From Escherichia coli (GTDB lineage: Bacteria; Pseudomonadota; Gammaproteobacteria; Enterobacterales; Enterobacteriaceae): a stretch of 64,000 bases of DNA. The notes under the pieces were generated by a model that made no database searches, had not been told where the DNA came from, and was given only the letters and a program-made list of their open reading frames with translations. The stretch is taken from NCBI RefSeq assembly GCF_036507355.1, contig NZ_AP027877.1; one strand, written 5' to 3'. Shown here in pieces: positions 2,487 to 48,354 of the stretch (positions are counted from its first letter, which is position 1; each line of letters begins with the position of its first letter). The position numbers and the translations under genes were made by a program.

Positions 2487-4094
2487 ATGTATACGCGAAA
2501 TTTATTATGGCTGGTCAGCCTGGTAAGTGCGGCTCCTCTCTACGCTGCTGACGTTCCCGCCAACACACAGCTCGCCCCGCAACAAGTCTTTCGTTACAAC
2601 AATCATAGCGACCCAGGTACGCTCGACCCGCAAAAGGTGGAGGAGAATACTGCTGCGCAGATTGTGCTGGATCTGTTTGAAGGTCTGGTATGGATGGACG
2701 GTGAAGGCCAGGTGCAGCCCGCTCAGGCTGAACGCTGGGAGATACTGGACGGCGGCAAGCGCTATATTTTCCATCTGCGTAGCGGTTTGCAGTGGTCCGA
2801 CGGTCAGCCTCTGACGGCAGAGGATTTTGTCCTCGGCTGGCAGCGCGCGGTTGACCCGAAAACGGCAAGCCCTTTTGCTGGCTATCTGGCACAGGCGCAC
2901 ATTAACAATGCCGCGGCTATTGTTGCGGGTAAAGCAGATGTTACATCGCAGGGTGTCAAAGCGACGGATGATCGTACTCTTGAAGTTACGCTTGAGCAGC
3001 CGGTTCCTTGGTTCACGACGATGCTCGCCTGGCCGACGCTGTTCCCGGTTCCTCATCATGTCATCGCTAAACATGGCGATAGCTGGAGTAAGCCAGAGAA
3101 CATGGTTTACAACGGTGCCTTTGTGCTTGATCAGTGGGTAGTTAACGAAAAGATTACTGCACGCAAAAATCCAAAGTACCGCGATGCGCAACATACAGTA
3201 TTGCAACAGGTTGAGTATCTGGCGCTGGATAATTCGGTCACCGGCTATAACCGCTATCGCGCGGGAGAGGTCGATCTCACCTGGGTTCCGGCGCAGCAAA
3301 TTCCCGCCATTGAAAAATCACTGCCTGGCGAGCTACGAATTATTCCGCGTCTGAACAGCGAATATTACAACTTCAACCTTGAGAAACCGCCATTTAACGA
3401 TGTGCGAGTGCGTCGGGCGCTATATCTTACGGTTGATCGACAGCTTATTGCGCAAAAGGTACTGGGGTTGAGAACGCCCGCAACCACGCTGACGCCGCCA
3501 GAGGTAAAAGGCTTTAGCGCGACGAGGTTCGATGAACTGCAAAAGCCAATGAGTGAGCGCGTCGCGATGGCAAAAGCCTTGCTGAAACAGGCGGGATACG
3601 ACGCCTCTCATCCGCTACGCTTTGAGCTGTTCTACAACAAGTACGATCTGCATGAAAAGACCGCGATAGCGTTGTCTTCCGAATGGAAAAAATGGCTGGG
3701 TGCACAGGTGACGCTGCGCACAATGGAGTGGAAAACCTATCTTGATGCCCGACGAGCCGGTGATTTCATGCTGTCTCGGCAGTCGTGGGATGCGACGTAC
3801 AATGATGCTTCCAGCTTCCTGAACACGCTCAAAAGCGATAGTGAAGAAAACGTCGGTCACTGGAAAAATGCGCAGTATGACGCCTTACTAAACCAGGCCA
3901 CGCAGATCACTGATGCGACAAAGCGTAATGCGTTGTATCAGCAGGCAGAAGTGATCATCAACCAGCAGGCACCGCTGATTCCTATCTACTATCAGCCGTT
4001 AATCAAACTGCTTAAACCCTACGTTGGCGGTTTTCCGCTGCATAATCCCCAGGATTATGTCTACAGCAAAGAGTTGTATATCAAGGCACATTGA
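2487..4094 (+). CDS. ygiS: Periplasmic solute-binding protein YgiS (oligopeptide-binding family)
   Basis: ORF 2424-4094 trimmed to ATG at 2487 (MYTRNLLWLVSLVSAAPLYA signal peptide, AAGGA RBS upstream); 535 aa family 5 SBP. Confidence 0.9.
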   Translation: MYTRNLLWLVSLVSAAPLYAADVPANTQLAPQQVFRYNNHSDPGTLDPQKVEENTAAQIVLDLFEGLVWMDGEGQVQPAQAERWEILDGGKRYIFHLRSGLQWSDGQPLTAEDFVLGWQRAVDPKTASPFAGYLAQAHINNAAAIVAGKADVTSQGVKATDDRTLEVTLEQPVPWFTTMLAWPTLFPVPHHVIAKHGDSWSKPENMVYNGAFVLDQWVVNEKITARKNPKYRDAQHTVLQQVEYLALDNSVTGYNRYRAGEVDLTWVPAQQIPAIEKSLPGELRIIPRLNSEYYNFNLEKPPFNDVRVRRALYLTVDRQLIAQKVLGLRTPATTLTPPEVKGFSATRFDELQKPMSERVAMAKALLKQAGYDASHPLRFELFYNKYDLHEKTAIALSSEWKKWLGAQVTLRTMEWKTYLDARRAGDFMLSRQSWDATYNDASSFLNTLKSDSEENVGHWKNAQYDALLNQATQITDATKRNALYQQAEVIINQQAPLIPIYYQPLIKLLKPYVGGFPLHNPQDYVYSKELYIKAH

Positions 4095-4231
4095 TGCCTT
4101 TATCGCCGTCGGAGCACGTCCGGCGGCGCTATTCACGCTGATCTCCTGTGACTCGACGCGGCAGATAATGTAGTATCTCCGGCAATATTGCCCCTTTGAA
4201 GGCTGGCGAATAAGTTGAGGAATCAGAATTA

Positions 4232-33836: not shown

Positions 33837-35336
33837 ATGCTAAATTTATTTGTTGGCCTTGATATATACACAGGGCTTTTGTTATTACTTGCTCTGGCAT
33901 TTGTGTTGTTCTACGAAGCAATCAATGGTTTTCATGACACGGCGAATGCGGTGGCAACCGTTATTTATACTCGTGCCATGCAGCCACAGCTTGCCGTGGT
34001 GATGGCGGCATTTTTTAACTTTTTTGGCGTGTTATTGGGCGGACTTAGCGTTGCCTATGCCATTGTCCATATGTTGCCAACCGATTTGTTGCTGAATATG
34101 GGGTCAACCCACGGCCTGGCGATGGTCTTTTCCATGCTGCTGGCGGCGATTATCTGGAACCTGGGAACGTGGTTCTTCGGTTTACCGGCCTCCAGTTCGC
34201 ACACCTTGATTGGTGCGATTATCGGCATCGGTTTAACCAACGCGCTGTTAACCGGCTCATCGGTGATGGATGCGTTAAACCTGCGTGAAGTGACCAAAAT
34301 TTTCTCCTCGCTGATTGTTTCCCCTATCATCGGCCTGGTCATTGCGGGAGGCCTGATATTCCTGCTGCGCCGTTTCTGGAGCGGAACGAAAAAGCGTGAC
34401 CGTATTCACCGCATTCCGGAAGATCGCAAAAAGAAAAAAGGCAAACGTAAGCCGCCATTCTGGACGCGTATTGCGCTGATTGTTTCCGCTGCGGGCGTGG
34501 CGTTTTCGCACGGCGCTAACGACGGGCAGAAAGGGATCGGCCTGGTGATGCTGGTACTGGTGGGGATTGCCCCTGCTGGCTTCGTCGTCAATATGAACGC
34601 GTCCGGCTATGAAATTACCCGTACCCGCGATGCCGTTACCAACTTCGAACACTACCTGCAACAGCATCCTGAACTGCCGCAGAAGTTGATTGCGATGGAA
34701 CCTCCATTGCCTGCGGCATCGTCTGATGGCATGCAAGTAACGGAGTTTCACTGTCATCCGGCAAATACCTTTGATGCGATTGCGCGCGTTAAAACGATGC
34801 TGCCAGGCAATATGGAAAGTTACGAGCCGTTAAGCGTGAGTCAGCGCAGCCAGCTGCGCCGCATTATGCTGTGCATCTCTGATACCTCCGCGAAGCTGGC
34901 GAAACTGCCAGGCGTCAGTAAAGAAGACCAGAACCTGCTGAAAAAACTTCGCAGCGATATGTTAAGCACCATTGAGTACGCTCCGGTGTGGATCATCATG
35001 GCAGTAGCACTGGCGCTCGGCATTGGCACCATGATTGGCTGGCGTCGTGTTGCGATGACCATCGGTGAGAAGATTGGTAAGCGCGGCATGACGTATGCGC
35101 AAGGCATGGCGGCACAAATGACGGCGGCAGTGTCTATCGGTCTTGCCAGTTATATTGGGATGCCCGTCTCCACAACACACGTCCTCTCGTCTGCAGTTGC
35201 AGGGACGATGGTGGTGGACGGCGGTGGGTTACAGCGTAAAACGGTAACCAGCATCCTGATGGCGTGGGTATTTACTTTACCGGCGGCGATTTTTCTTTCT
35301 GGTGGGCTGTACTGGATAGCATTGCAGTTGATTTAA
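33837..35336 (+). CDS. pitB: Low-affinity inorganic phosphate transporter PitB
   Basis: 499-aa polytopic [42 protein letters not shown]...; recognised as PitB. Confidence 0.95.
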
Positions 35337-35384
35337 CCTTCCTGAAAATGCCCGGTCCTGGCGATCGGGCATTTCCATTTTTGG

Positions 35385-36077
35385 CTAGTGATAACCACGC
35401 GCGGTCATAAAATCCGTAATCGCTTTTTCTGCATCAACCAACACCTGTTCCAGTGGCTGATTGGCATCGATATCAACCAGTTGTGCACCACCAAAGGTTA
35501 ACTGTGGCGTTATGGCAATCTTCCTCGCCAGCGATTCCCGTTTATGGTCGGGTTTACGCATGCAGGCAACTTCAAGGTCAACATTGAGTTTGATGACCAG
35601 ATCAGGCTTATGGCTCGCCATCCAGTGAAACGCTTTACGTTCCTGGCTTGCCAGCCATGAGACAAAACGACCACCTTCAACGTTAGGTGGGAACACCGTA
35701 CCATCGTAAGCGCCAGGAATTTGGTCCTGAGGATAACGGTCGGTTAGAACAATTAACCCGCGACGACGACAGGCAAGCATATGACGAAAGCGCAGTAAGC
35801 GACGGGCGACAAACGCTGTAATTACCAGCGCCGGAACTGGTCCAGGCAATTTTTTTGCTGTTTTCACCTGATTTCGTTCAATTGTTTTATGTAAGGATTT
35901 TCCCATCAACGGTAATTTTGTCACTGCACGACCGACATTTCCGGCCTGTTTTCCTAAATGAACTCTTTCGGCAGCACCATATTTTTCGACAACGGTAATG
36001 AGATGTTCACACACCGTTGACTTGCCTGAACCATCGCTACCAATAACGGCAATTAATGGAGGTGTTATTGACTGCAT
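35385..36077 (-). CDS. yghT: P-loop kinase-like protein YghT (thymidylate/nucleoside-kinase-like fold)
   Basis: 230-aa ORF; Walker [13 protein letters not shown]-type motif LTDRYPQ, C-terminal RKPDH motif shared with YghS/YghR. Confidence 0.85.
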
Positions 36078-36155
36078 GAATATATCCTTTAATTTAAATA
36101 TCCATTAAAAATATTTATTTGGTTAATATGTTTTTATGAAAGCGTAATTCAGGTC

Positions 36156-36183
36156 AATGTCACAATTAACCATTGTCACAATA
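36156..36183. promoter_or_regulatory. Candidate operator in the yghT/yghS divergent promoter region
   Basis: AATGTCACAATT and the perfect 11-bp palindrome ATTGT-C-ACAAT lie 16 bp apart in an AT-rich 173-bp divergent intergenic region. Confidence 0.3.
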
Positions 36184-36250
36184 AGGTTGAACGGATATTC
36201 TGAGCACGGACCACGTAATATTCAATACATTATTTGCTGCCGGGTTTTTC

Positions 36251-36964
36251 GTGAATCAACGTAATATGTCAATAATTAATTCCACGCCAGTGCGTGTTAT
36301 TGCCATTGTAGGATGTGATGGTTCAGGTAAATCGACCCTCACGGCAAGCCTGGTAAATGAACTGGCAGCAAGAATACCAGCAGAACACATTTATCTCGGG
36401 CAATCGTCCGGGCGAATTGGCGAATGGATTTCACAGCTCCCTGTTATTGGCGCACCTTTTGGGCGTTATCTGCGAAGTAAAGCGGCACATGTGCACGAAA
36501 AGCCCTCAACACCGCCTGGCAATATTACTGCGCTGGTTATCTATCTGCTTTCCTGCTGGCGGGCGTACAAGTTTCGCAAAATGTTGTGTAGAAGCCAGCA
36601 AGGCCATCTGCTCATCACCGACCGCTACCCGCAGGTTGAAGTGCCGGGTTTTCGCTTTGATGGCCCGCAATTGGCAAAAACCACGGGCGGTAACGGTTGG
36701 ATAAAAATGTTAAGGCAGCGCGAGTTGAAGCTGTACCAATGGATGGCGTCTTATTTACCCGTATTGTTGATTCGTCTTGGCATTGATGAACAAACCGCGT
36801 TTGCGCGTAAACCTGACCACCAACTGGCAGCGTTACAGGAAAAAATCGCCGTTACGCCGCAACTGACATTCAATGGCGCAAAGATCCTTGAACTGGATGG
36901 TCGGCAACCAGCCGATGAAATTCTGCAAGCGTCACTACGCGCAATTCACGCCGCGCTTTCCTGA
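36251..36964 (+). CDS. yghS: P-loop kinase-like protein YghS (paralog of YghT/YghR)
   Basis: 237-aa ORF; Walker A GCDGSGKST, ITDRYPQ, ARKPDH motifs. Confidence 0.85.
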   Translation: MNQRNMSIINSTPVRVIAIVGCDGSGKSTLTASLVNELAARIPAEHIYLGQSSGRIGEWISQLPVIGAPFGRYLRSKAAHVHEKPSTPPGNITALVIYLLSCWRAYKFRKMLCRSQQGHLLITDRYPQVEVPGFRFDGPQLAKTTGGNGWIKMLRQRELKLYQWMASYLPVLLIRLGIDEQTAFARKPDHQLAALQEKIAVTPQLTFNGAKILELDGRQPADEILQASLRAIHAALS

Positions 36965-36995
36965 TCACCAAAATGGATAGGGGATGATTTAACGA

Positions 36996-37754
36996 ATGGA
37001 TGCACTACAAACACAAACTGTTATTAGTACAACCGCGCCGCAGCCCAACTACATTCCGGGGCTGATTGCGGTGGTCGGGTGTGATGGCACCGGTAAATCC
37101 ACACTGACCACCGACCTGGTGAAATCGCTGCAACAACACTGGCAAACCGAGCGGCGCTATCTGGGGCTGCTCTCCGGCGAAGACGGCGACAAAATCAAAC
37201 GATTGCCGTTGGTTGGCGTCTGGCTGGAACGGCGACTGGCGGCCAAATCCTCGAAAACCCAAAGCATGAAAACCAAATCTCCGGCGCTATGGGCGGCGGT
37301 GATTATGTACTGCTTCTCGCTGCGAAGAATGGCGAATCTACGCAAGGTTCAGCGACTGGCGCAAAGTGGCGTTCTGGTGGTCAGCGATCGCTTCCCGCAG
37401 GCTGAAATTTCGGGCTTTTATTATGATGGACCGGGGATTGGCGTCGAACGTGCGACCGGGAAAATAAGCATGTTTCTGGCGCAGCGCGAACGGCGTTTAT
37501 ACCAACAAATGGCGCAATATCGCCCGGAATTAATTATTCGCTTGGGCATTGATATTGAGACTGCCATCTCCCGCAAGCCTGACCATGACTATGCCGAGCT
37601 GCAGGACAAAATCGGTGTTATGTCGACGATTGGCTATAACGGCACAAAAATTCTTGAGATTGATTCCAGAGCGCCCTACAGCGAAGTGCTGGAACAGGCA
37701 CAGAAGGCGGTTTCTCTGGTTGCCATCGTTTCTGACCGCCGAAGTTTAACTTAA
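36996..37754 (+). CDS. yghR: P-loop kinase-like protein YghR (paralog of YghT/YghS)
   Basis: 252-aa ORF; Walker A GCDGTGKST, VSDRFPQ, SRKPDH motifs. Confidence 0.85.
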   Translation: MDALQTQTVISTTAPQPNYIPGLIAVVGCDGTGKSTLTTDLVKSLQQHWQTERRYLGLLSGEDGDKIKRLPLVGVWLERRLAAKSSKTQSMKTKSPALWAAVIMYCFSLRRMANLRKVQRLAQSGVLVVSDRFPQAEISGFYYDGPGIGVERATGKISMFLAQRERRLYQQMAQYRPELIIRLGIDIETAISRKPDHDYAELQDKIGVMSTIGYNGTKILEIDSRAPYSEVLEQAQKAVSLVAIVSDRRSLT

Positions 37755-37799
37755 GGCTGGCGGGATACTTTTTACTATCAACGATAAGGTCAGGCTGAA

Positions 37800-39149
37800 T
37801 TGGCGGGTTTTAACATCAAACATTGGTTTGCAGATGGCGCGTTTCGCACCATTATTCGCAATAGCGCCTGGTTAGGCTCCAGTAATGTCGTGAGCGCCTT
37901 GCTGGGTCTGTTGGCGCTCTCGTGTGCCGGTAAAGGGATGACGCCCGCCATGTTTGGCGTACTGGTGATTGTGCAATCGTACGCCAAGTCGATCAGCGAT
38001 TTTATTAAGTTTCAGACATGGCAGCTGGTGGTTCAGTACGGAACACCAGCATTAACCAACAATAATCCGCAGCAATTTCGCAATGTCGTCTCATTTTCCT
38101 TCTCGCTGGATATCGTCAGCGGCGCGGTGGCGATTGTCGGCGGCATTGCCTTACTGCCATTCCTTTCCCATTCATTAGGTCTGGATGACCAAAGCTTTTG
38201 GCTGGCGGCGCTGTATTGCACGTTCATTCCTTCAATGGCTTCCTCCACGCCGACCGGCATTCTGCGTGCGGTAGATCGCTTTGATTTGATTGCTGTACAG
38301 CAGGCGACGAAACCTTTTCTGCGCGCAGCGGGGAGCGTCGCAGCCTGGTATTTTGACTTTGGTTTTGCGGGTTTTGTTATTGCCTGGTACGTGTCGAATC
38401 TGGTTGGCGGCACCATGTACTGGTGGTTTGCCGCGCACGAATTACGCCGCAGAAATATCCATAACGCCTTCAAATTGAATCTGTTTGAGTCTGCCCGACA
38501 CATTAAAGGCGCGTGGAGTTTTGTCTGGTCAACCAACATTGCCCACTCCATCTGGTCGGCGCGTAACTCGTGCAGCACAGTGTTGGTGGGGATCGTGTTA
38601 GGACCCGCTGCCGCCGGGTTATTTAAAATCGCCATGACATTCTTCGATGCCGCCGGAACGCCAGCGGGTTTGCTGGGTAAAAGTTTTTACCCAGAGGTGA
38701 TGCGTTTAGATCCGCGCACCACCAGACCGTGGTTGTTAGGCGTGAAGTCCGGTTTACTGGCGGGCGGAATCGGTATTCTGGTGGCGCTCGCGGTGTTGAT
38801 CGTCGGCAAGCCGCTCATTTCGCTGGTGTTTGGCGTTAAGTATCTCGAAGCGTATGACCTGATTCAGGTGATGCTGGGCGCAATTGTGATCTCGATGCTG
38901 GGTTTCCCGCAGGAGTCATTGCTATTGATGGCGGGAAAACAGCGCGCTTTTCTCGTGGCGCAAACCATCGCCTCAATCGGCTACATCGTATTGCTGTTCA
39001 TGTTCTGTCATCTGTTTGGTGTGCTGGGAGCAGCGTTTGCTTACTTCGGTGGGCAATGTCTGGACGTGGCGCTCTCGTTAATTCCAACCTTAAAGGCATT
39101 TTTTCAGCGCCATTCCTTGCTTTATAACGCAGCCGGAGAGAAATCCTGA
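37800..39149 (+). CDS. yghQ: Polysaccharide-biosynthesis/MOP-flippase-family inner membrane protein YghQ (apparently full length)
   Basis: 449-codon ORF from a TTG at 37800 (true start may be an internal ATG); highly hydrophobic multi-TM protein; I recall K-12 YghQ as shorter. Confidence 0.8.
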   Translation: MAGFNIKHWFADGAFRTIIRNSAWLGSSNVVSALLGLLALSCAGKGMTPAMFGVLVIVQSYAKSISDFIKFQTWQLVVQYGTPALTNNNPQQFRNVVSFSFSLDIVSGAVAIVGGIALLPFLSHSLGLDDQSFWLAALYCTFIPSMASSTPTGILRAVDRFDLIAVQQATKPFLRAAGSVAAWYFDFGFAGFVIAWYVSNLVGGTMYWWFAAHELRRRNIHNAFKLNLFESARHIKGAWSFVWSTNIAHSIWSARNSCSTVLVGIVLGPAAAGLFKIAMTFFDAAGTPAGLLGKSFYPEVMRLDPRTTRPWLLGVKSGLLAGGIGILVALAVLIVGKPLISLVFGVKYLEAYDLIQVMLGAIVISMLGFPQESLLLMAGKQRAFLVAQTIASIGYIVLLFMFCHLFGVLGAAFAYFGGQCLDVALSLIPTLKAFFQRHSLLYNAAGEKS

Positions 39150-39973
39150 TGATGAGAAAATATTTCCCGCTTGAGGCGAGCGAGCATCTATTTGTTGCGA
39201 TTGAGGAAGATGATGTTGTTGATGCCCAGGTCAGTTTGCCGCCGACTATCGCACTAAGTTGTACCACCGAAATCATCCATGATAATTACGCGTTATGCCT
39301 GCAATTCTGGCTCAATGGCGTTGATCGTCAGGAATTACTTCGTTTAATTCGCAAACAAGCCAAAGGCGATGAGCTGACGACAGACGAGCGTAAACAGTTT
39401 AAATACATGCGAGCGCGCTACAAGCATCTACGTTTTGCACAACGGCTGTATTTAAAAAAGCATCAGGCCAGATTTTTATTCGGCAAAACGACCGTTTTTC
39501 TGGGACGTTTTCAGGACGGATTTCGTAACGGTAAGAAAAATATTGTGTCGTATTACGGCAACCTGTTACGAATTTATTTAAGCTCTCCGGTCTGGTCGTT
39601 GGTGAACTATTCATTACGCCATAGCCAGTTAGAAAGCGTAAGCGGTTTTATTGCCTATCGGCAAAAGCAAATGCATACCCTGAAAGAGATTATTGCCAAA
39701 CCGCGACTAACCGGCAGGGAATTTCATGATGTGCGAAAAATCATCAGCCAGCAGGTTTCTTATTACGACACCTTAAGATCGCTTGATCCTGAAAATAAAG
39801 AGGCGTTACAGATTTCCCGTTTCCTCGCCGCCATTAATGGCCTGATGGGGGATCAACACGACGACATGGTGGCGGATGATATGGAAAACCGCCAGTCGTA
39901 TGATGCACCGGTGGCGCTGGATAGCGATATTCGCCAGCGCTTAGAGCTGCTGATTTCGCGTTTTCCGCTATAA
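39149..39973 (+). CDS. Hypothetical basic protein (274 aa), no family recognised
   Basis: ATG overlaps the yghQ stop (TGATG), implying translational coupling; ORF MMRKYFPLEASEHLFVAIEEDDVV...; within a same-strand gene array. Confidence 0.65.
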   Translation: MMRKYFPLEASEHLFVAIEEDDVVDAQVSLPPTIALSCTTEIIHDNYALCLQFWLNGVDRQELLRLIRKQAKGDELTTDERKQFKYMRARYKHLRFAQRLYLKKHQARFLFGKTTVFLGRFQDGFRNGKKNIVSYYGNLLRIYLSSPVWSLVNYSLRHSQLESVSGFIAYRQKQMHTLKEIIAKPRLTGREFHDVRKIISQQVSYYDTLRSLDPENKEALQISRFLAAINGLMGDQHDDMVADDMENRQSYDAPVALDSDIRQRLELLISRFPL

Positions 39974-39981
39974 CCGGAGCA

Positions 39982-40545
39982 ATGATGTCATCTCGTTTGA
40001 TTATTGCGCTGATTATCATGCTCTTAGCCCCGGGTGTGCAGGCACACAATTTCGTCACTGGCAAAACGGTTACCCCTGTTTATATTCAGGAAGGCGGCGA
40101 GCTGCTTCTGAATAGCGACGACGAAATTCACTACCAAAAGTGGAACAGCACACAATTGGCGGGAAAAGTCCGAATTATCCAGTATATCGCCGGGCGTAAG
40201 TCGGCGAAGAAAAAGAACTCACTGTTAATTAAAGCGGTTGAAGCGGCAAACTTTCCGCAGGATCGTTTTCAGCCCACCACCATTGTGAACACCGATGATG
40301 CCATCTTTGGTACTGGCTATTTTGTTGTTGGCAAAATCGAAAAAAATAAACGCCACTATCCGTGGGCGCAATTCGTTATTGACGGCAATGGACAGGGACG
40401 CGTTGCCTGGCGCTTGCCGGAGCAGAGTTCAACCATTCTGGTGCTGAATAAAGCCGGGCAAATTCAGTGGGCAAAGGACGGCAGCCTGACGCCGGAAGAG
40501 GTAGATCATGTTATTGCGCTGGCGCAGAAACTGATCAATGAATAA
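39982..40545 (+). CDS. YtfJ-family periplasmic protein (paralog of E. coli YtfJ)
   Basis: 187-aa ORF with signal peptide; HNFVTGKTVTPVYIQEGGELLLNSDDEIHYQKWNSTQLAGKVRIIQYIAGR closely parallels my recollection of the YtfJ sequence. Confidence 0.7.
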   Translation: MMSSRLIIALIIMLLAPGVQAHNFVTGKTVTPVYIQEGGELLLNSDDEIHYQKWNSTQLAGKVRIIQYIAGRKSAKKKNSLLIKAVEAANFPQDRFQPTTIVNTDDAIFGTGYFVVGKIEKNKRHYPWAQFVIDGNGQGRVAWRLPEQSSTILVLNKAGQIQWAKDGSLTPEEVDHVIALAQKLINE

Positions 40546-40575
40546 AAAATTCAAAGGATTGAGGGCGTTAGTGAG

Positions 40576-41646
40576 ATGAAGCTGGTTGAACACTACATCA
40601 TGCGTGGTACGCGCCGTCTGGTGCTGATTATCGTCGGTTTTCTGATCTTTATTTTCGCCAGCTACTCCGCACAGCGTTATCTGACCGAAGCGGCAAATGG
40701 GACATTAGCTCTTGATGTTGTGCTGGATATCGTTTTCTACAAAGTGCTGATTGCACTGGAGATGTTGTTACCTGTTGGTCTGTATGTGTCAGTTGGCGTG
40801 ACGCTAGGGCAGATGTATACCGACTCGGAAATTACCGCTATCTCTGCGGCGGGGGGCAGTCCGGGACGCTTGTACAAAGCCGTTCTTTATCTGGCGATAC
40901 CGCTAAGTATTTTTGTCACCCTTCTGTCGATGTATGGTCGTCCGTGGGCTTATGCGCAGATTTATCAACTGGAGCAGCAGTCGCAGTCGGAGCTGGATGT
41001 TCGCCAGTTGCGGGCAAAGAAATTTAACACTAACGATAACGGACGAATGATCCTTTCGCAGACGGTTGATCAGGATAATAATCGCCTGACTGACGCGCTG
41101 ATTTATACTTCTACTGCCAATCGAACCCGCATTTTCCGCGCCCGTTCGGTTGATGTGGTTGACCCATCACCCGAGAAACCGACCGTTATGTTGCACAACG
41201 GCACTGCCTATCTTCTCGATCATCAGGGGCGTGACGACAACGAACAGATCTACCGTAATCTGCAATTACATCTGAATCCGCTGGATCAAAGCCCTAACGT
41301 CAAACGCAAAGCGAAATCGGTCACGGAGCTGGCGCGCTCCGTCTTTCCAGCCGATCATGCCGAACTGCAATGGCGACAAAGCCGTGGCCTGACCGCATTG
41401 TTGATGGCGCTGCTGGCCATTTCATTAAGTCGGGTAAAACCGCGGCAAGGGCGATTTTCAACATTATTGCCACTGACGTTGCTGTTTATTGCCATTTTTT
41501 ATGGCGGCGACGTCTGCCGTACGCTGGTGGCTAACGGCGCGATTCCCCTCATTCCTGGTTTGTGGTTAGTACCCGGACTCATGCTAATGGGCCTGCTGAT
41601 GCTGGTCGCACGCGACTTCTCTTTGCTGCAGAAATTTTCCCGATGA
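40576..41646 (+). CDS. LptF/LptG-family (YjgP/YjgQ) permease paralog 1
   Basis: 356-aa ORF; N-terminal TM segments; region LEMLLPVGLYVSVGVTLGQMYTDSEITAISAAG parallels the LptF motif [29 protein letters not shown] recalled from memory. Confidence 0.8.
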   Translation: MKLVEHYIMRGTRRLVLIIVGFLIFIFASYSAQRYLTEAANGTLALDVVLDIVFYKVLIALEMLLPVGLYVSVGVTLGQMYTDSEITAISAAGGSPGRLYKAVLYLAIPLSIFVTLLSMYGRPWAYAQIYQLEQQSQSELDVRQLRAKKFNTNDNGRMILSQTVDQDNNRLTDALIYTSTANRTRIFRARSVDVVDPSPEKPTVMLHNGTAYLLDHQGRDDNEQIYRNLQLHLNPLDQSPNVKRKAKSVTELARSVFPADHAELQWRQSRGLTALLMALLAISLSRVKPRQGRFSTLLPLTLLFIAIFYGGDVCRTLVANGAIPLIPGLWLVPGLMLMGLLMLVARDFSLLQKFSR

Positions 41647-42722
41647 ATGTTTTCAGTCGCTATTTAATCCGTCATCTCTTTCTCGGTTTTGCCGCCGCCG
41701 CAGGGCTATTGCTGCCGCTTTTTACCACCTTCAACCTGATTAACGAACTGGATGATGTCAGCCCGGGCGGTTATCGCTGGACTCAGGCGGTGCTGGTGGT
41801 GCTAATGACCTTACCGCGCACACTTGTCGAACTTTCGCCATTTATCGCCTTATTGGGAGGGATTGTCGGCCTGGGGCAGCTATCGAAAAACAGTGAGCTT
41901 ACCGCCATTCGCAGCACGGGGTTTTCTATCTTCCGTATTGCACTGGTGGCGCTGGTTGCCGGGATATTGTGGACTGTTTCGTTAGGCGCGATAGATGAGC
42001 GGGTAGCGTCGCCATTGCAGCAACAGGCGCTGCAAATCAAATCGACCGCCACCGCGTTGGGGGAGGACGATGACATTACCGGCAATATGCTGTGGGCCAG
42101 GCGCGGCAATGAATTTGTGACGGTGAAATCGCTGAATGAGCAGGGCCAGCCTGTGGGCGTGGAGATTTTTCATTATCGTGACGATCTCTCGCTCGAATCC
42201 TACATTTATGCACGCAGTGCCACCATTGAAGACGACAAAACGTGGATCCTGCATGGTGTGAATCATAAAAAATGGCTGAATGGCAAAGAAACGCTGGAAA
42301 CATTAGATAATCTTGCCTGGCAATCGGCCTTCACCAGTATGGATCTTGAAGAGCTATCGATGCCGGGGAATACTTTTTCTGTCCGTCAGCTTAATCATTA
42401 CATCCATTATTTGCAGGAAACCGGGCAACCCAGCAGCGAATACCGCCTTGCACTGTGGGAAAAACTGGGGCAACCCATCCTGACCCTGGCGATGATTTTG
42501 CTGGCTGTGCCGTTTACCTTTAGCGCCCCGCGCTCGCCAGGGATGGGTAGCCGTCTCGCTGTAGGCGTCATCGTTGGCTTACTCACCTGGATCAGCTATC
42601 AAATCATGGTCAATTTGGGATTGCTATTTGCGTTAAGCGCACCTGTTACCGCGCTCGGTTTACCGATAGCGTTTGTGCTGGTGGCGTTGAGCCTGGTGTA
42701 TTGGTATGACAGACAACATTAA
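41643..42722 (+). CDS. LptF/LptG-family (YjgP/YjgQ) permease paralog 2
   Basis: ORF 41562-42722 trimmed to ATG 41643 (MNVFSRYLIRHLFLGF..., 359 aa) overlapping the upstream stop (ATGA); same architecture as paralog 1. Confidence 0.8.
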   Translation: MNVFSRYLIRHLFLGFAAAAGLLLPLFTTFNLINELDDVSPGGYRWTQAVLVVLMTLPRTLVELSPFIALLGGIVGLGQLSKNSELTAIRSTGFSIFRIALVALVAGILWTVSLGAIDERVASPLQQQALQIKSTATALGEDDDITGNMLWARRGNEFVTVKSLNEQGQPVGVEIFHYRDDLSLESYIYARSATIEDDKTWILHGVNHKKWLNGKETLETLDNLAWQSAFTSMDLEELSMPGNTFSVRQLNHYIHYLQETGQPSSEYRLALWEKLGQPILTLAMILLAVPFTFSAPRSPGMGSRLAVGVIVGLLTWISYQIMVNLGLLFALSAPVTALGLPIAFVLVALSLVYWYDRQH

Positions 42723-42723
42723 A

Positions 42724-42750
42724 CCCGCCGTGGCGCAACACCACGGCGGG
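42724..42750. terminator. Hairpin between convergent operons (putative bidirectional terminator)
   Basis: CCCGCCGTGG-CGCAACA-CCACGGCGGG perfect 10-bp stem in the 34-bp gap between the two convergent stops. Confidence 0.5.
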
Positions 42751-42756
42751 CTCACA

Positions 42757-43929
42757 TTACTGCTTCAGAGTAGCAAATGCCTGAATGATGGCATCGATTT
42801 GCTCACGACTGTGGGCAGCGTTTACGCTACAGCGCAGCAGCGTGATGCCTGCAGGCGCGGCAGGTGGCAGGATAAGATTCACATAAACGCCCAGCGAAAT
42901 AAGCTCGCGCCAGATGCGTAAACCTTCCTCTTTCGAACCGATTATTACCGGCACTACCGGACTAATATGTGAACTTAACTCATAACTCAGCTTTTGCAGC
43001 CCGTCATACAGATGGTTGGCATTATCCATCAGTTTTTGCCGCAACTCTGGTTGAGTGGCAATGGTTCTTAACGACGAGCGCACGGTTGCAATGCAGGAAG
43101 GAGAAGGGGAGGCGGTAAAAATATACGGACGACTGCCGTAGCGCAGCACTTCCATCGCTTCCGAACCCACGGCAAAACCACCAATAGAAGCCAGGCTTTT
43201 ACTGAAGGTGCCAACGATAATATCCACATCATCTTCAACGCCAACGGCTTCAACCAGCCCGCGCCCCGTTGCGCCTAACACGCCAAACGAGTGAGCTTCA
43301 TCGACAATTAAATATCCGCCGAGACGACGTTTGATATCAACAATTTCCGCCAGCGGCGCAACGTCACCGAGCATACTGTAGATGCCCTCAACGATGATAA
43401 TCGCCTCTTTCGCCCGTTCACCGAGGCGAACCATGCGCCGTTCCAGATCTTTAGCATCGTTATGGCGGAAACGAATAATTTCCGCGCCACCGAGAGAACA
43501 GGCGTCATAAATACTGGCGTGGCTGTCAGCATCCAGTAACACCACGGCGTTATGGTCGGCAAGTGCGCTGATGACGCCTAAATTAGCGGTATAACCGGTT
43601 GAAAAAACGATAGCGGTAGGGCGATTGAAAAACTCAGCAATCTCTTTCTCTAACGCCAGATGCGGCGCATAACTGCCGTTTGCCATACGAGAACCGGTGG
43701 TGCCGGTGCCTTGGGCCGCTAACGCTGCCTGACCTTCGGCGATGGCATCATGATTGAAGGTTAATCCGAGATAATTATTGGTCCCGGCCAGAATCACTTT
43801 TTTATTGCCGATCCGGCCTTCGGTGGCGGAATACACTTCATCAATACAGGTGCCAAACGGTGTTAACCCGTTGTCACTAAATTGCAGACGCTCGCCAGCA
43901 AGGCGCGCATATTTATCGTATAGCCCCAT
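42757..43929 (-). CDS. PLP-dependent alpha-oxoamine synthase, serine-palmitoyltransferase-like
   Basis: 390-aa ORF; DEAHSFGVLG and GTFSKSLASIGGF (PLP-lysine motif of the AONS/SPT/KBL family); ATG overlaps the stop of the upstream ACP gene. Confidence 0.85.
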   Translation of the reverse strand: MGLYDKYARLAGERLQFSDNGLTPFGTCIDEVYSATEGRIGNKKVILAGTNNYLGLTFNHDAIAEGQAALAAQGTGTTGSRMANGSYAPHLALEKEIAEFFNRPTAIVFSTGYTANLGVISALADHNAVVLLDADSHASIYDACSLGGAEIIRFRHNDAKDLERRMVRLGERAKEAIIIVEGIYSMLGDVAPLAEIVDIKRRLGGYLIVDEAHSFGVLGATGRGLVEAVGVEDDVDIIVGTFSKSLASIGGFAVGSEAMEVLRYGSRPYIFTASPSPSCIATVRSSLRTIATQPELRQKLMDNANHLYDGLQKLSYELSSHISPVVPVIIGSKEEGLRIWRELISLGVYVNLILPPAAPAGITLLRCSVNAAHSREQIDAIIQAFATLKQ

Positions 43930-44177
43930 TATTTATTCTCCAGCCATGGAAGTAGAGTTTCCATTAATTGCGCAGGGGTTTTGACATCCAGCAGAATATT
44001 AATAGGAATGGAAATATCGAATCTGTCTTCCAGCATCATTAAGAGATCCATCACTTTGATCGACTCCAGGCCAAGATCGTTGACGAGATCGCTGTCGGGC
44101 TTAATTTCCACACCGTTTTCGACCAAATCCTGTAAACAGGAAAGGATGTAATCCATTACTATTTCACGATTTACCAT
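43929..44177 (-). CDS. Acyl carrier protein (dedicated, non-AcpP)
   Basis: 82-aa acidic ORF with DLGLESIKVMDL phosphopantetheine-attachment-type serine motif. Confidence 0.8.
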   Translation of the reverse strand: MVNREIVMDYILSCLQDLVENGVEIKPDSDLVNDLGLESIKVMDLLMMLEDRFDISIPINILLDVKTPAQLMETLLPWLENK

Positions 44178-44208
44178 AGAAACGTTAACACACCTTTAAA
44201 CAAGACAA

Positions 44209-45123
44209 TCAAAATAGCCCGTTGCGTAATGCGTGTTCCAGGCTAATCCCGGGAAACCAATTAATATCTTCAGAAATACGGTTATTACTTGCCGACCAGT
44301 CGGCGTGGGTTAATTCACGAATTTTCGAGCGGGTCAGCATAGGTTCTTTACCTGCCAGGCGACTCAACGCGGTACTGATATCCGCAAGGCAGGTGAGTAC
44401 CGGCAGAGGAATGCCAACCATTCGCACGGAACCACAACGGGCGTCGGCGGCAAGTTGCTGTACGCGTTGCCAGTCATAGCCGCCAGCGACGCCATCGCAT
44501 AATTCATAGGTTTGCGTCTGTACAGTTTCGGCGCTTAACCACTGACCCACTGCTTGCGCAAAATCGGTGACATGCAGGAAAGAGAGCTGTGTATCTGGTG
44601 CACCAAGTCGTGGCAGCAGGCCGCGCAGCATCCAGTCAAACAGCGGTTTTAACTCTTTATCGCCGGGACCATACACGGCTGTCGGGCGAAAAACGCCCAG
44701 CGTAATTTCGTCAGCCATTGCCGTCAGCCGTTGTTCGGCGACGTGTTTGGAATTTGCGTACCAGGAGAGCTCGGGATGGCGCGCCGCCAGCGAAGAGATA
44801 AACAGAAAACGTTGGCAAAAGCCGCTCTCTTTTGCTGCTTGCATCAGGCGCAGGCTGCCGTCAACGTTACAGTGGGTAAAAATCTCTTCTTTGTGTCCGC
44901 GCACTTGCCCGGCGCAATGGACCACCGCGCTGGCTCCGGCAACCAGTTCGCTAAGCGAATGTGTATCTTCCAGCGAACCGCGCACCCAAGTAAGATTATC
45001 ATTGACGTGAGCGCGGGCAGTACGCGTCAATGCGCGAACGTGAAAGCCGCGGGCGAGCAGGTTATCGATAATATATTTACCGATAAAACCGGTAGCGCCC
45101 GTCACCGCGACAGTTTGATTCAT
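44209..45123 (-). CDS. NAD(P)-dependent epimerase/dehydratase-family (extended SDR) reductase
   Basis: 304-aa ORF; N-terminal VTGATGFIGKYI Rossmann motif; YANSK (YxxxK) catalytic motif; start overlaps the upstream stop (ATGA). Confidence 0.8.
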   Translation of the reverse strand: MNQTVAVTGATGFIGKYIIDNLLARGFHVRALTRTARAHVNDNLTWVRGSLEDTHSLSELVAGASAVVHCAGQVRGHKEEIFTHCNVDGSLRLMQAAKESGFCQRFLFISSLAARHPELSWYANSKHVAEQRLTAMADEITLGVFRPTAVYGPGDKELKPLFDWMLRGLLPRLGAPDTQLSFLHVTDFAQAVGQWLSAETVQTQTYELCDGVAGGYDWQRVQQLAADARCGSVRMVGIPLPVLTCLADISTALSRLAGKEPMLTRSKIRELTHADWSASNNRISEDINWFPGISLEHALRNGLF

Positions 45124-46841
45124 GCCAGGGATTCCTGCACATGAAGGCTTGCAGCATAAGCCTTCTGATAACGTTTTTTCGCTTCCGCACGGGCAGGCTT
45201 GCCGGAGGACGTTCGGGGAATGCTGTGGGGCGGCAACAGATCGATAGCCGCGGTCACGCCAAATTCGCTTTGGATCCGTGCTGCCAGCGCGTGGATAAGC
45301 TGCCCGCGACGTTCTTCATCGCTGATCCGACACTGGATCTGCAAAATGATTTTTTCCTGGACGGTAACAAAAGCAATCGCATCGCCAGAATGAATTTCCG
45401 GTTCCTGTTCCGCTATATATTCAATATCCTGCGGCCAGATATTACGGCCACGAATAATAATCAGATCTTTAATGCGTCCGGTGACATACAGATAACCATC
45501 CAGCAGATAACCGAGGTCGCCAGTGTCTAACCAGCCCGTCGCGGCAATCTCGTCTTGCGAAGCCTGGTCGCCAAAGTAACCGCTCATCAGACTGGGACCG
45601 GAGATGCAAATATGGCCTACCACACGTTCCGCGACCGGCATACCTGCTTGATTGCGGATTTCAATACCATGTTCCGGCAACGCTTTGCCGCAGTTGACGA
45701 AAGTCGATACGGCGCGTGTCTCTGCACCCGGCGCGACGGCTTTACCCTGATATTCGAGGATGTCGCGATCCACTTCGTTAACTACAACCCCGGAGGCTTC
45801 ATCAGAGAAGCTGACAGCCAGCGCATTTTCTGCCAGGCCGTAGCACGGCATGAAAGTTTTATCGTCAAAGTTAACCTGACGGAAACATTCAGCGAATTGA
45901 TGGAGTTGTTCTGCGGAGATGGGTTCTGCACCAATACCAGCGACGCGCCAGCAGGAAAGATCCAGTTCAGCGAGATCTTTTTCATTCACGCGGCGCTGGC
46001 ACAATTCATAGCCAAACGGCGGCGCAACGGAAACGGTGCCGCGATTTTTACTGATCAATTTAAGCCATTGCAGAGGACGCATGGCAAAATCCTGAGTGCG
46101 CAAATAATCTACTGAAAGTTGCGTGGCGACGGGGGTCAGGAGAAAGCCGACCAGTCCCATATCATGGTAGAAAGGCAGCCAGGAGACGCAGCGGTCGCCA
46201 GGGCGTAATTTAATGCCGTCGTGGCTTATAGCACGTAGATTAGCCATCACTTCGCGATGGGTGATAATGACGCCACGGGGAAAACGGGTGCTGCCGGAGG
46301 TGTACTGGAGGTAGGCGATATCGTTCGGAACTGGACGCTGGAGCGCAACATCGGCTTCCGGTAATGCCTTAAACCAGGCGTGGCTTAAAACATGTAATTC
46401 GGGGTTGTCATGCGTCGCGGCATTGACCAGTGGCAACCACTCATCACCAGTGATAATGGCTGCGGGCTGGCAACTTGTCAGTAAACCCTGCAATTTGGCG
46501 CTCCAGGAATCCCGCTGACCAACGCCCATTGGAATCGCCAACGGGACGGCGACTAAGCCGGCATACTGGCAGGCAAAAAAAGCCTCTACGAACCCGCTAC
46601 TTGTTTCGGCAATCAGTGCCACGCGATCGCCTTTTTTCAGGTTCAGCGATAACAACCGCTTCGCACCAGCTTCGGCACGCGCTTTTAACGTCTGATATTC
46701 CAGTTGATCTTCAAGTTGGCAACGTCTGTCATAAAAATTCATTCCAGCGCTACTCAGAGCGGCGTAGTCCAAAGCATCAACCAGCGTTGGAAAATCGGCA
46801 TAGCGTATAGGTAGGGAATGCGTAAAGATTTTATTAGACAT
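45120..46841 (-). CDS. Fatty acyl-AMP ligase / acyl-ACP synthetase (adenylate-forming enzyme)
   Basis: ORF 45120-46850 (GTG) trimmed to ATG 46839-46841 (MSNKIFTHSL...); AMP-binding core motifs YTSGSTRFPRGV and TGDLGY...GRIKDLIIIRGRNI. Confidence 0.85.
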   Translation of the reverse strand: MSNKIFTHSLPIRYADFPTLVDALDYAALSSAGMNFYDRRCQLEDQLEYQTLKARAEAGAKRLLSLNLKKGDRVALIAETSSGFVEAFFACQYAGLVAVPLAIPMGVGQRDSWSAKLQGLLTSCQPAAIITGDEWLPLVNAATHDNPELHVLSHAWFKALPEADVALQRPVPNDIAYLQYTSGSTRFPRGVIITHREVMANLRAISHDGIKLRPGDRCVSWLPFYHDMGLVGFLLTPVATQLSVDYLRTQDFAMRPLQWLKLISKNRGTVSVAPPFGYELCQRRVNEKDLAELDLSCWRVAGIGAEPISAEQLHQFAECFRQVNFDDKTFMPCYGLAENALAVSFSDEASGVVVNEVDRDILEYQGKAVAPGAETRAVSTFVNCGKALPEHGIEIRNQAGMPVAERVVGHICISGPSLMSGYFGDQASQDEIAATGWLDTGDLGYLLDGYLYVTGRIKDLIIIRGRNIWPQDIEYIAEQEPEIHSGDAIAFVTVQEKIILQIQCRISDEERRGQLIHALAARIQSEFGVTAAIDLLPPHSIPRTSSGKPARAEAKKRYQKAYAASLHVQESLA

Positions 46842-46850
46842 ATACACCAC

Positions 46851-47211
46851 GAAAAAATTGGATATCCAAAATAAAATGACAATAATGCGGTGGATTATAT
46901 AGGCATAAAAGATAAATGAGATAGTATTTTCATCGGTGTGAAAATGAACATTGATTTAAATAATGAGTTTAAGTTTTTTGTTTTTATTGTGAATGATATT
47001 TAATTTATGAATATATTAAGAAGAAGCCTTGTCCGGTCGCCTTAAATCGACAAAAGGCATTGTGGCGCTTCTGCGTAGTCGCTGACCCTATCGTAATCAT
47101 TAATAAATACTATTTATTCGTCGTTTGTATTCATTGGGTTGATTATTAAGATGCCGTTCGTTGCTGTTGCAACCTGTTTTTCACCGTTAATTATTTGTTA
47201 TCCACAGAACT
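46851..47211. promoter_or_regulatory. AT-rich divergent promoter region between the FAAL operon and yghO
   Basis: 361-bp noncoding stretch, visibly AT-rich with A/T tracts (e.g. TTTAAATAATGAGTTTAAGTTTTTTGTTTTTATTGTGAATGATATTTAATTTATGAATATATTAAG), flanked by divergent starts. Confidence 0.4.
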
Positions 47212-48354
47212 ATGGAATGCGATCTGCTGATGATCAAAATTGAAAAAGTAATTAATAAAAATGACCTTAAGGCATTTATTGCTTTTCCGTCATCACTTTA
47301 TCCCGATGATCCAAACTGGATACCCCCTTTATTCATTGAACGCAGCGAGCATTTGTCTGCGAAGAATCCGGGGACGGACCATATCATCTGGCAGGCGTGG
47401 GTGGCAAAAAAAGCGGGGCAGATAGTTGGGCGTATTACCGCGCAAATAGATACCTTACACCGCGAGTGTTACGGCGAAGATACCGGTCATTTCGGCATGA
47501 TTGACGCCATTGATGATCCGCAGGTTTTTGCCGCGTTGTTTGGCGCAGCGGAAGCGTGGTTGAAGTCACAAGGTGCAAGTAAGATCAGCGGGCCTTTCAG
47601 CCTGAATATCAATCAGGAAAGCGGATTACTGATTGAAGGTTTTGACACACCACCCTGTGCGATGATGCCACACGGCAAACCGTGGTATGCCGCGCATATT
47701 GAACAACTGGGTTATCACAAAGGCATTGATTTACTGGCGTGGTGGATGCAGCGAACCGATCTCACTTTCTCTCCGGCGCTAAAAAAACTGATGGTTCAGG
47801 TGCGCAAAAAGGTGACCATTCGCTGCATCAATCGCCAGCGGTTTGCCGAAGAGATGCAGATCCTGCGTGAGATTTTCAACTCTGGCTGGCAGCACAACTG
47901 GGGATTTGTGCCGTTTACCGAACATGAATTCGCGACCATGGGCGACCAACTTAAATATCTGGTGCCGGACGATATGATCTACATCGCTGAGATTGATTCT
48001 GCACCTTGCGCGTTTATTGTCGGCTTGCCAAACATCAACGAGGCGATTGCCGATCTGAACGGATCGCTCTTTCCCTTCGGCTGGGCAAAATTGCTGTGGC
48101 GTTTGAAAGTCAGCGGTGTGCGAACTGCGCGAGTACCGCTGATGGGCGTGCGCGACGAGTATCAGTTCAGCCGCATCGGCCCGGTGATTGCGCTGTTATT
48201 GATTGAAGCCTTACGCGATCCGTTTGCCCGCCGGAAGATCGATGCGCTGGAGATGTCATGGATCCTCGAAACCAATACAGGCATGAATAACATGCTGGAA
48301 CGCATTGGGGCGGAGCCGTACAAGCGTTACCGATTGTATGAAAAGCAGATTTAA
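47212..48354 (+). CDS. yghO: YghO-family protein, putative GNAT-like N-acyltransferase, intact
   Basis: 380-aa ORF MECDLLMIKIEKVINKNDLKAFIAFPSSLYPDDPNWIPPLF...; recognised as YghO family, which I recall as a disrupted pseudogene in K-12; acyltransferase assignment is from family knowledge, not from motifs I can verify. Confidence 0.7.
   Translation: MECDLLMIKIEKVINKNDLKAFIAFPSSLYPDDPNWIPPLFIERSEHLSAKNPGTDHIIWQAWVAKKAGQIVGRITAQIDTLHRECYGEDTGHFGMIDAIDDPQVFAALFGAAEAWLKSQGASKISGPFSLNINQESGLLIEGFDTPPCAMMPHGKPWYAAHIEQLGYHKGIDLLAWWMQRTDLTFSPALKKLMVQVRKKVTIRCINRQRFAEEMQILREIFNSGWQHNWGFVPFTEHEFATMGDQLKYLVPDDMIYIAEIDSAPCAFIVGLPNINEAIADLNGSLFPFGWAKLLWRLKVSGVRTARVPLMGVRDEYQFSRIGPVIALLLIEALRDPFARRKIDALEMSWILETNTGMNNMLERIGAEPYKRYRLYEKQI

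Follow-up and report, generated by a model that had tools for sequence, protein, structure and literature searches.

The window analyzed here, a 64,000-nt stretch of Escherichia coli DNA, contains three adjacent genes for kinase-like proteins. yghT (35385-36077, minus strand, 230 aa) is divergent from yghS (36251-36964, plus strand, 237 aa) and yghR (36996-37754, plus strand, 252 aa), in agreement with the inverted orientation described in the original prediction. The AT-rich region between yghT and yghS (36078-36250) carries a plus-strand sigma-70-like match at 36173-36201, which is a consensus match only, and a GC-rich, terminator-like hairpin, likewise a pattern match only, lies between the convergent pitB and yghT at 35346-35374. 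SlyA induces yghS in K-12. Downstream on the plus strand are yghQ (37800-39149), which encodes a 449-aa polytopic flippase of the MOP/Wzx type, and a gene for an unnamed, all-alpha protein of 274 aa (39149-39973) whose start overlaps the yghQ stop. These are followed, still on the plus strand, by a gene for a YtfJ-family protein with a signal peptide and thus a predicted periplasmic location (39982-40545), and by lptF2 (40576-41646) and lptG2 (41643-42722), both encoding LptF/LptG-like permeases. The ceramide backbone synthesis genes spt, acpR, cerR and aasR occupy the minus strand at 42757-46808, and yghO, a homologue of bacterial ceramide synthase/N-acyltransferase, lies on the plus strand at 47212-48354.

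YghT, YghS and YghR are paralogues, 33-40% identical to one another over their full length. Each has a Walker A P-loop, GCDGTGKST being one of its forms (36015-36041 in yghT, 36311-36337 in yghS, 37077-37103 in yghR), and each has a DR(Y/F)PQ motif, which reads DRYPQ in YghT (35727-35741) and YghS (36620-36634) and DRFPQ in YghR (37386-37400). The RKPDH motif is also common to all three (35544-35558, 36806-36820 and 37572-37586, respectively), but it is not the C-terminal tail that it was first taken for; it falls ~75-80% of the way along the protein, where NMP kinases have their lid. Similarly, the TPQLTF(N/G)GA block that had been assigned to the whole trio is found in YghT and YghS, but YghR has MSTIGYNGT instead.

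Structure prediction and Foldseek comparison against kinase folds, which had been suggested as a check of the kinase assignment, returned an NMP-kinase fold. The AF2 kinase model has a pLDDT of 91.5, the best Foldseek matches are Tmk, and hhalign against E. coli Tmk gives a probability of 95.5%; the P-loop, the DRX motif and the lid are present in each of the three proteins. With a pI of 9.6-9.9 and neither a transmembrane segment nor a signal peptide, the proteins are predicted to be soluble, very basic and therefore cytoplasmic. Their likeness to Tmk lies in a GxDGxGK(S/T)T P-loop with an acidic residue, the DR(Y/F) motif and a lid arginine. However, they are only 15-23% identical to Tmk, far under the family cut-offs, and ~40 additional residues form long basic helices (53-116) that Tmk does not share. 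The invariant motifs YLG..SG, PQ, (F/Y)DG and RKPDH, together with a pI of ~9.7, further set YghRST apart. Searching solved structures with the kinase profile gave weak Tmk P-loop matches only, and comparison with anti-phage defence models likewise gave matches only at the level of the P-loop.

This distance from Tmk bears directly on the current annotation, as RefSeq labels yghS and yghT "dTMP kinase" (the PGAP product name). Although there are weak matches to the corresponding models, the scores on TIGR00041 are 24.4 (YghT), 24.7 (YghS) and 32.0 bits (YghR) against a cut-off of 83.25 and 234.3 bits for the true E. coli Tmk, and those on PF02223 are 19.7, 17.7 and 26.8 bits, respectively, against a cut-off of 27. 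The Tmk residues that reportedly contact dTMP, including the thymine and deoxyribose moieties (F74, R78 and S104/T105/Q106 in E. coli), are not conserved: the equivalent positions hold Y/F/M, C/R/L and V-E-V, and are variable or replaced by the PQ and FDG motifs. Moreover, the tmk gene of E. coli is located elsewhere. We therefore consider it next to impossible that these are genuine dTMP kinases, and a better assignment would correct a label that has spread through RefSeq. The sequences and models instead suggest three non-redundant and probably catalytically competent members of a distinct, uncharacterized branch of the thymidylate-kinase superfamily (NMP-kinase fold).

Average-linkage clustering of the homologues yields three clean orthogroups, to which yghT, yghS and yghR respectively belong (T, 69 sequences; S, 78; R, 72), and these span the Alpha-, Beta- and Gammaproteobacteria. 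Duplication had been invoked as the origin of the trio; the copies are indeed paralogues, but rather than a local diversification the pattern points to an ancient triplication whose three orthologue groups have been kept across proteobacterial classes. The motifs are ~100% conserved across 220 homologues, and K27/S28/T29, D124-R125, D137, E158, R186-K187-P188-D189-H190 and K198 are ~100% conserved in each orthogroup. With a dN/dS of 0.13, yghS is under purifying selection, and so is yghR, whose value is 0.04. Such conservation, combined with purifying selection, argues that the motifs did not arise by chance and that the copies are still under constraint. In 94% of complete E. coli genomes the yghT-yghS-yghR region is present at least partially, and in 85% most of it is there; the spt-aasR block occurs in ~75% (4067-4183 of 5426).

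The genomic context of the kinases is as consistent as their sequences. In 80 species they accompany the MOP flippase YghQ and the unannotated 274-aa protein, usually within 10 kb of spt, acpR, cerR, aasR and yghO. Among the 51 species loci whose 10-kb flanks are complete, all three kinases are found in 45, yghQ in 44, the 274-aa protein gene in 40 and spt in 39, while the order of the genes varies among Escherichia, Serratia, Pantoea, Carnimonas and the sphingomonads. Natural fusions reinforce this picture: an S-R fusion lies within an spt locus, a T-X fusion adjoins genes for 274-aa-type and YghQ-like proteins, and relatives are fused to Wzx flippases. The three kinases, YghQ and the 274-aa protein form a conserved module embedded in the proteobacterial sphingolipid locus. 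Membership in a lipid locus, which had been a guess, is now strongly supported by comparative genomics. The observation behind the original prediction is real, and its interpretation is partly supported.

The 274-aa protein appears to be CHAD-like, based on its fold and on marginal sequence scores. It has a pair of four-helix bundles and conserves basic and histidine residues, and Pfam CHAD (PF05235) matches 9 of 35 family members, one of them at 26.0 bits relative to a gathering score of 25.6. PF05235 does not match the E. coli protein itself, alignment of the family with the short CHAD domain of E. coli YgiF by hhalign was negative, and a search of solved structures with the family profile returned nothing. 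The gene lies two genes downstream of the kinases and is co-conserved with them in 53 of 80 loci. CHAD domains bind polyphosphate. That the kinases travel with a flippase and a polyphosphate-binder-like protein in a sphingolipid cluster makes phosphorylation of that lipid a more probable role than synthesis of a DNA precursor.

The presence of permeases in a locus that, in E. coli, has no ABC ATPase gene beside them raises the question of whether the kinases are NTPase subunits that energize or gate YghQ or LptF2G2 and phosphorylate nothing. The proteins do have a Walker A P-loop like that of LptB, they are encoded beside LptF/G-like permeases, and fusions of kinase domains to Wzx-type flippases exist. 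Nevertheless, theirs is an NMP-kinase fold with lid and DRX motif rather than an ABC, RecA or AAA+ fold. There is no LSGGQ-type signature and no Q-loop/H-loop architecture, and matches to ABC_tran (Pfam) are under the cut-off and span only ~25-34 residues of the P-loop. MOP flippases are not ATP-driven, and the LptF2G2 paralogues of Caulobacter bind the housekeeping LptB. This explanation is very hard to sustain, and the earlier view that the kinases are not the missing transporter ATPase, together with its premise that the ABC signature is absent, holds.

We propose instead that YghT, YghS and YghR are cytoplasmic phosphotransferases that build a phosphate-rich ceramide head group before the lipid is flipped and exported by LptF2G2. 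We hold this reading tentatively, with a probability of about 0.4, and infer as follows which acceptor is used, in what order the steps run, what complex forms and what is produced. Ceramide would be made by the products of spt, acpR, aasR, yghO and cerR. A lipid kinase would then generate ceramide phosphate, namely the DgkA paralogue of the locus where there is one and, in E. coli, the housekeeping DgkA. The three kinases, acting sequentially or as a hetero-oligomer, would use ATP to add further phosphoryl groups to the head group by a transfer onto phosphate of the Tmk/PPK3 type, giving a pyro- or oligophosphate. The CHAD-like protein may bind this phosphate-rich group, YghQ would flip the lipid, and LptF2G2 together with LptB would extract it toward the outer membrane. 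A DgkA paralogue in ~20 loci and a PAP2 phosphatase in 18, both enzymes of lipid phosphates, speak for this proposal. Among the observations that weigh against it, K-12 has kept yghRST intact although the rest of the locus is lost, distant relatives occur in polysaccharide clusters that have no sphingolipid genes, and, in contrast to PPK3, every paralogue retains the DRX arginine and neither ppx nor sixA is a neighbour.

An alternative that stays closer to the original prediction is that the three proteins are lipid kinases directed at hydroxyls, each paralogue phosphorylating a different one on the ceramide or long-chain base (the C1-OH, the C3-OH, or an acyl-chain OH introduced by an LpxO-like hydroxylase). 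The linkage to the locus fits this equally well, an LpxO-like hydroxylase is encoded in 19 loci, a CpgB-type ceramide kinase is missing from the E. coli locus, and the invariant D137, E158, D189 and H190 could serve as a general base. However, where deoxynucleoside kinases carry their catalytic base after strand 2 there is a YLGxxSG motif and no acidic residue. In addition, ~20 loci already have, next to the triad, a DgkA paralogue and thus a member of a lipid-kinase family, and the co-conserved CHAD-like protein is left without explanation. The YghT/S/R sequences themselves hold no feature that separates a phosphate from a hydroxyl acceptor; it is the CHAD-like partner and the precedent of PPK3, neither of which figured in the original prediction, that favor phosphate-on-phosphate chemistry. 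Simple hydroxyl phosphorylation is possible but unlikely.

It is less plausible still that the acceptor is a soluble head-group precursor (a nucleotide, nucleoside, sugar or acid) that is joined to ceramide after its phosphorylation. The enzymes closest in fold all have soluble nucleotides as substrates, and the fusion of many distant relatives to an NTP_transf_5-like nucleotidyltransferase domain suggests a logic of kinase followed by activation. The Caulobacter pathway uses a soluble activated phosphoglycerate, which CpgD makes. However, there is no gene in the E. coli locus for a nucleotidyltransferase, CDP-alcohol transferase or glycosyltransferase that could attach such a precursor, and three conserved kinases would be uncommonly many for a single precursor. 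Their close coupling to MOP flippases, including fusions with them, points to an acceptor that is bound to the membrane.

Could the kinases form a heteromeric PPK3-like enzyme that makes or uses free polyphosphate and has the CHAD-like protein as its adaptor to granules or polyphosphate? Adjacent Tmk-like paralogues with a CHAD-like gene do resemble the PPK3 operon, the proteins are basic, and pitB adjoins the locus in Escherichia, Hafnia, Citrobacter and Pseudocitrobacter; the tie to sphingolipids would then be a loose one, such as the supply of phosphate or energy. Yet with the queries used, neither the window nor any of the 80 loci showed ppx, sixA or pst as neighbours (a His_Phos_1 gene was rejected as a general neighbour, as it occurs in one locus only). 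All paralogues retain the DRX arginine, so that none fits the regulatory subunit of PPK3, and linkage to spt, yghQ and lptFG extends across many orders. E. coli also already has PPK1, and K-12 ppk mutants reportedly lack polyphosphate. We regard synthesis or use of free polyphosphate as quite improbable.

If the preferred reading of a phosphate-rich ceramide head group is correct, its most novel and more speculative version is that the product is a ceramide oligophosphate, to which each orthologue adds one phosphate in phosphoanhydride linkage, or which the complex extends processively in the manner of PPK3. We think this particular product unlikely, and to our knowledge no ceramide oligophosphate has ever been reported. 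It would represent an undescribed class of anionic outer-membrane lipid, whose handling would fall to a CHAD-like chaperone together with a MOP flippase and an Lpt-type exporter. Its genes would be present in approximately three-quarters of E. coli genomes and in many Enterobacterales, Xanthomonadales, Betaproteobacteria and sphingomonads. The recently discovered chemistry of the PPK3 type would then possibly apply to a lipid as well as to free polyphosphate. More generally, spt-aasR is present in ~75% of complete E. coli genomes, yet no sphingolipid structure has been reported for E. coli. Defining these genes would show which lipid the bacteria place in their outer membrane, a matter relevant to resistance to polymyxin and detergents and to interaction with the host. 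The literature found mentions yghT, yghS, yghR and yghQ only in screen tables and in a SlyA-regulon entry with no function assigned, and we found no biochemistry or lipidomics for yghT/S/R or for any E. coli sphingolipid, and no paper connecting thymidylate-kinase-like genes with spt loci.

Two known systems frame this proposal. The spt locus of Caulobacter encodes a ceramide phosphoglycerate pathway, with the ceramide kinase CpgB and CpgA/C/D, and its cpg genes include nucleotidyltransferases, a CDP-alcohol-type transferase and a phosphoesterase. Both systems place head-group genes inside the same type of locus (spt, acpR, cerR, aasR, bCerS, lptF2G2 and a putative flippase), and both probably serve the same purpose, an anionic outer-membrane sphingolipid. 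However, cpg homologues are missing from the E. coli-type locus, which has the three kinases and the CHAD-like protein in their place; no YghRST homologue has been described in the Caulobacter locus. With the Caulobacter head-group genes absent, head-group chemistry in the enterobacterial locus type has no candidates other than YghQ, the CHAD-like protein and the three kinases. Homology of the kinases to CpgB was considered and rejected: CpgB belongs to the DAG-kinase/LCB5 family and has a GGDG motif, whereas YghT/S/R have a P-loop fold and no DAGK Pfam match.

The nearest precedent for yghT/S/R is PPK3 of Sulfolobus, a polyphosphate kinase formed by two Tmk paralogues (Saci_2019/Saci_2020) from a CHAD-containing operon, which have lost the dTMP-binding residues and have a basic cleft. 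YghT/S/R are likewise adjacent paralogues of the Tmk superfamily with the canonical tmk elsewhere in the genome, are co-encoded with a CHAD-type protein (CHAD-like by fold and marginal scores), and combine a basic character with the absence of dTMP-binding residues. There are also differences. YghT/S/R number three, where PPK3 has two paralogues, and their sequence similarity to PPK3 is no higher than that to Tmk. The DRX arginine (R125), which the PPK3 regulatory subunit lacks, is 100% conserved in the T, S and R orthogroups, so that no obvious regulatory subunit exists among them. Finally, they lie beside genes for sphingolipid synthesis, for a MOP flippase and for LptFG instead of ppx, sixA or pst.

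The proteins encoded by yghT (35385-36077, minus strand, 230 aa), yghS (36251-36964, plus, 237 aa) and yghR (36996-37754, plus, 252 aa; a CDS without a name in RefSeq) are paralogues with 33-40% identity over full-length alignments, and all share the Walker A motif G(S/C)DG(S/T)GKST, DR(Y/F)PQ and RKPDH. The original prediction is confirmed as an observation, with two amendments: the TPQLTF(N/G)GA block is present in YghT and YghS and absent from YghR, and RKPDH, described as a C-terminal block, instead occupies the lid position in both the YghS model and the profile alignment to Tmk. These are real genes, with dN/dS against another Escherichia species of 0.13 for yghS and 0.04 for yghR. With pI values of 9.6-9.9 the three E. 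coli proteins are strongly basic, and none has a signal peptide or membrane segment.

Pfam and NCBIfam return only generic P-loop matches and sub-threshold thymidylate-kinase matches. An AlphaFold2 model of YghS built from 47 diverse homologues (mean pLDDT 91.5) retrieved thymidylate kinases as the top PDB matches in Foldseek (E about 4e-7, TM 0.52-0.57), and profile-profile comparison with E. coli Tmk gave a probability of 95.5% at 17% identity. The proteins therefore fall with kinases and not with a non-kinase NTPase fold, and we regard the kinase fold as nearly certain. That they are ATPase partners of transporters is less likely; as had been noted, an LSGGQ-type ABC signature occurs in none of the three. 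RefSeq/PGAP names yghS and yghT 'dTMP kinase', an identity that is effectively excluded by TIGR00041, on which the true E. coli Tmk scores 234 bits and the three proteins 24-32 (yghS and yghT 24-25) against a cut-off of 83, and by the lack of conservation where the alignment places Tmk F74, R78 and S104-Q106. The genome carries its real tmk at another site, and the label is a propagated over-annotation.

Scanning one genome per species identified 317 relatives; 80 loci were kept, and 220 full-length kinase sequences were extracted from them. Average-linkage clustering resolved three clean groups, YghT-type (69), YghS-type (78) and YghR-type (72), ranging across Enterobacterales, Carnimonas, Xanthomonadales, many Betaproteobacteria, sphingomonads and Acetobacter; the triplication is ancient and retained. 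The P-loop Lys/Ser/Thr, D124-R125, D137, E158, R186-K187-P188-D189-H190 and K198 are ~100% conserved in each group, and from its residues no paralogue looks like a pseudo-enzyme. Invariant residues peculiar to each group concentrate at positions 48-75 and 103-107, the counterpart of the Tmk acceptor side. Many distant relatives are ~500 aa long (P0163, P0169, P0222, P0269, P0257) and have at the N-terminus a nucleotidyltransferase domain (NTP_transf_5-like) bearing a GETDLDLLVD motif; fusions to Wzx-type flippases or to a GT4 glycosyltransferase occur in some of them, and one (L006) lies in a Wzx/Wzy polysaccharide cluster alongside sulfation genes.

Genes were placed by listing ORFs and by consulting the RefSeq annotation of the best-matching genome. 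Upstream of yghT lie gss and pitB, and 3' of yghR follow, all on the plus strand and spaced by 8-45 nt or overlapping, yghQ (a MOP flippase), a gene for a 274-aa hypothetical protein (39149-39973), a YtfJ-family gene and two LptF/LptG-like permease genes. Beyond these, spt, acpR, cerR and aasR lie on the minus strand, followed by yghO (47212-48354, plus), whose product is a ceramide synthase/N-acyltransferase homologue according to the literature and matches no Pfam or NCBIfam model. This sphingolipid locus has been partly characterised by biochemistry in E. coli BL21 (PMC9386255). The yghT-yghS intergenic region (36078-36250) is AT-rich (500-bp block GC 0.41), and SlyA overexpression in K-12 raises yghS 3.1-fold along with genes silenced by H-NS; silencing may be the normal state of the locus.

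The window is chromosomal DNA of E. coli, and its bases 35000-38000 are matched by 5082 of 5426 complete genomes of the species, at a top identity of 99.3%. The other 344 have no match, one copy is plasmid-borne, and in O157:H7 RIMD 0509939 the match is limited to 73 nt at the pitB end, yghT-yghR being absent. In the K-12 lineage (L005 8801-11030, equivalent to ~37800-47200), an IS5 element lies between a truncated yghQ and yghO, where it stands in place of the 274-aa gene, ytfJ-like, lptF2G2, spt, acpR, cerR and aasR; the associated deletion runs from the 3' part of yghQ up to yghO. With the rest of the locus lost, the K-12 yghTSR genes are therefore an orphaned remnant.

Linkage was counted by tblastn of the window proteins against the 80 loci and tabulated for the 51 with full 10-kb flanks. 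All three kinases occur in 45 of these, yghQ in 44, the 274-aa gene in 40, spt in 39, cerR in 38, aasR in 36 and lptF/lptG-like genes in 27, and the association is kept despite reshuffled gene order in Escherichia, Serratia, Pantoea/Erwinia, Carnimonas and others. Sphingomonads and Acetobacter, whose sphingolipid genes are known to be dispersed, have the order S-R-T-yghQ-274aa; the conserved core therefore comprises the MOP flippase, the 274-aa protein and all three kinases. We put the probability that the kinases belong to the sphingolipid pathway at roughly 0.8. Natural in-frame fusions, S-R (492 aa, L094 5947-7425, on five contigs, within an spt locus) and T-X (509 aa, L095 8008-9537, beside CHAD-like and YghQ-like genes and one for a His_Phos_1 phosphatase), suggest physical association between the paralogues.

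Accessory genes also accompany the kinases outside the E. coli window, which contains none of them: a DgkA (DAGK_prokar) paralogue in about 20 loci from enterobacteria and Carnimonas, a PAP2 membrane phosphatase in 18 different loci, and an LpxO-like hydroxylase in 19 (example sites L002 2279-2644, L004 12404-12730 and L094 8264-8842). In Sphingobium wenxiniae (L080 14548-16589) the kinase/flippase/CHAD-like module is followed by a GT4 glycosyltransferase gene and a gene resembling GINT1_N, the N-terminal domain of glucosamine inositolphosphorylceramide transferase, which hints that phosphorylated ceramide is glycosylated in sphingomonads.

The 274-aa protein is labelled 'hypothetical protein' throughout the databases, and the E. 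coli sequence has no Pfam or NCBIfam match of its own. Its AF2 model is all-alpha (pLDDT 94.2), and the family alignment (n=35) is rich in invariant Arg, Lys and His, with two H-x-(x)-R-K motifs among them. Pfam CHAD matches nine of the 35 members, one of them passing the gathering score; CHAD domains are specific polyphosphate-binding modules (PMC6537752). Because a comparison with E. coli YgiF, which has a short CHAD domain, gave a negative result, we term the protein CHAD-like, not a proven CHAD.

The kinases are strictly linked to ceramide synthesis genes and stand alongside a MOP flippase, an Lpt-like exporter and DgkA and PAP2 accessory genes. Lipid pyrophosphates are the usual substrates of the MOP flippase family. 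Together with a parallel to PPK3, the heteromeric polyphosphate kinase of Sulfolobus, which these associations fit, this company leads us to propose ceramide head-group phosphorylation. Everything past 'kinases of the sphingolipid module' is what we infer. In this proposal the three kinases would phosphorylate the ceramide head group on the cytoplasmic side, the CHAD-like protein would then bind the phosphate-bearing head group ahead of flipping by YghQ, and LptF2G2 would extract the lipid using LptB, as in Caulobacter, where LptF2G2 operates with LptB. We lean modestly towards a lipid head group as the substrate. The most economical version, in which ceramide phosphate is lengthened to a pyro- or oligophosphate, involves phosphoanhydride chemistry that we consider rather unlikely. 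The original interpretation, hydroxyl-directed ceramide or long-chain-base kinases, is partly supported and plausible, sharing with our proposal the linkage to ceramide synthesis; kinases of a soluble head-group precursor are less likely.

The genes are already known and named, and the literature searched holds no functional data for yghT, yghS or yghR. Relative to that literature, the five-gene module conserved within bacterial sphingolipid loci, of which the kinases are members, the CHAD-like nature of their partner and the analogy with PPK3 appear to be new. In Sulfolobus, two adjacent thymidylate-kinase paralogues form PPK3, share an operon with a CHAD protein, and have kept the nucleotide site, lost the dTMP site and gained a basic cleft (2026 study, PMC12995831). 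The E. coli proteins are similar in being several basic, Tmk-like paralogues with a CHAD-like partner, a lost dTMP site and fusions suggestive of physical association. However, none of them lacks the DRX arginine and they have no ppx or sixA neighbours, both of which count against membership of PPK3; a PPK3-like enzyme acting on free polyphosphate is among the less likely readings.
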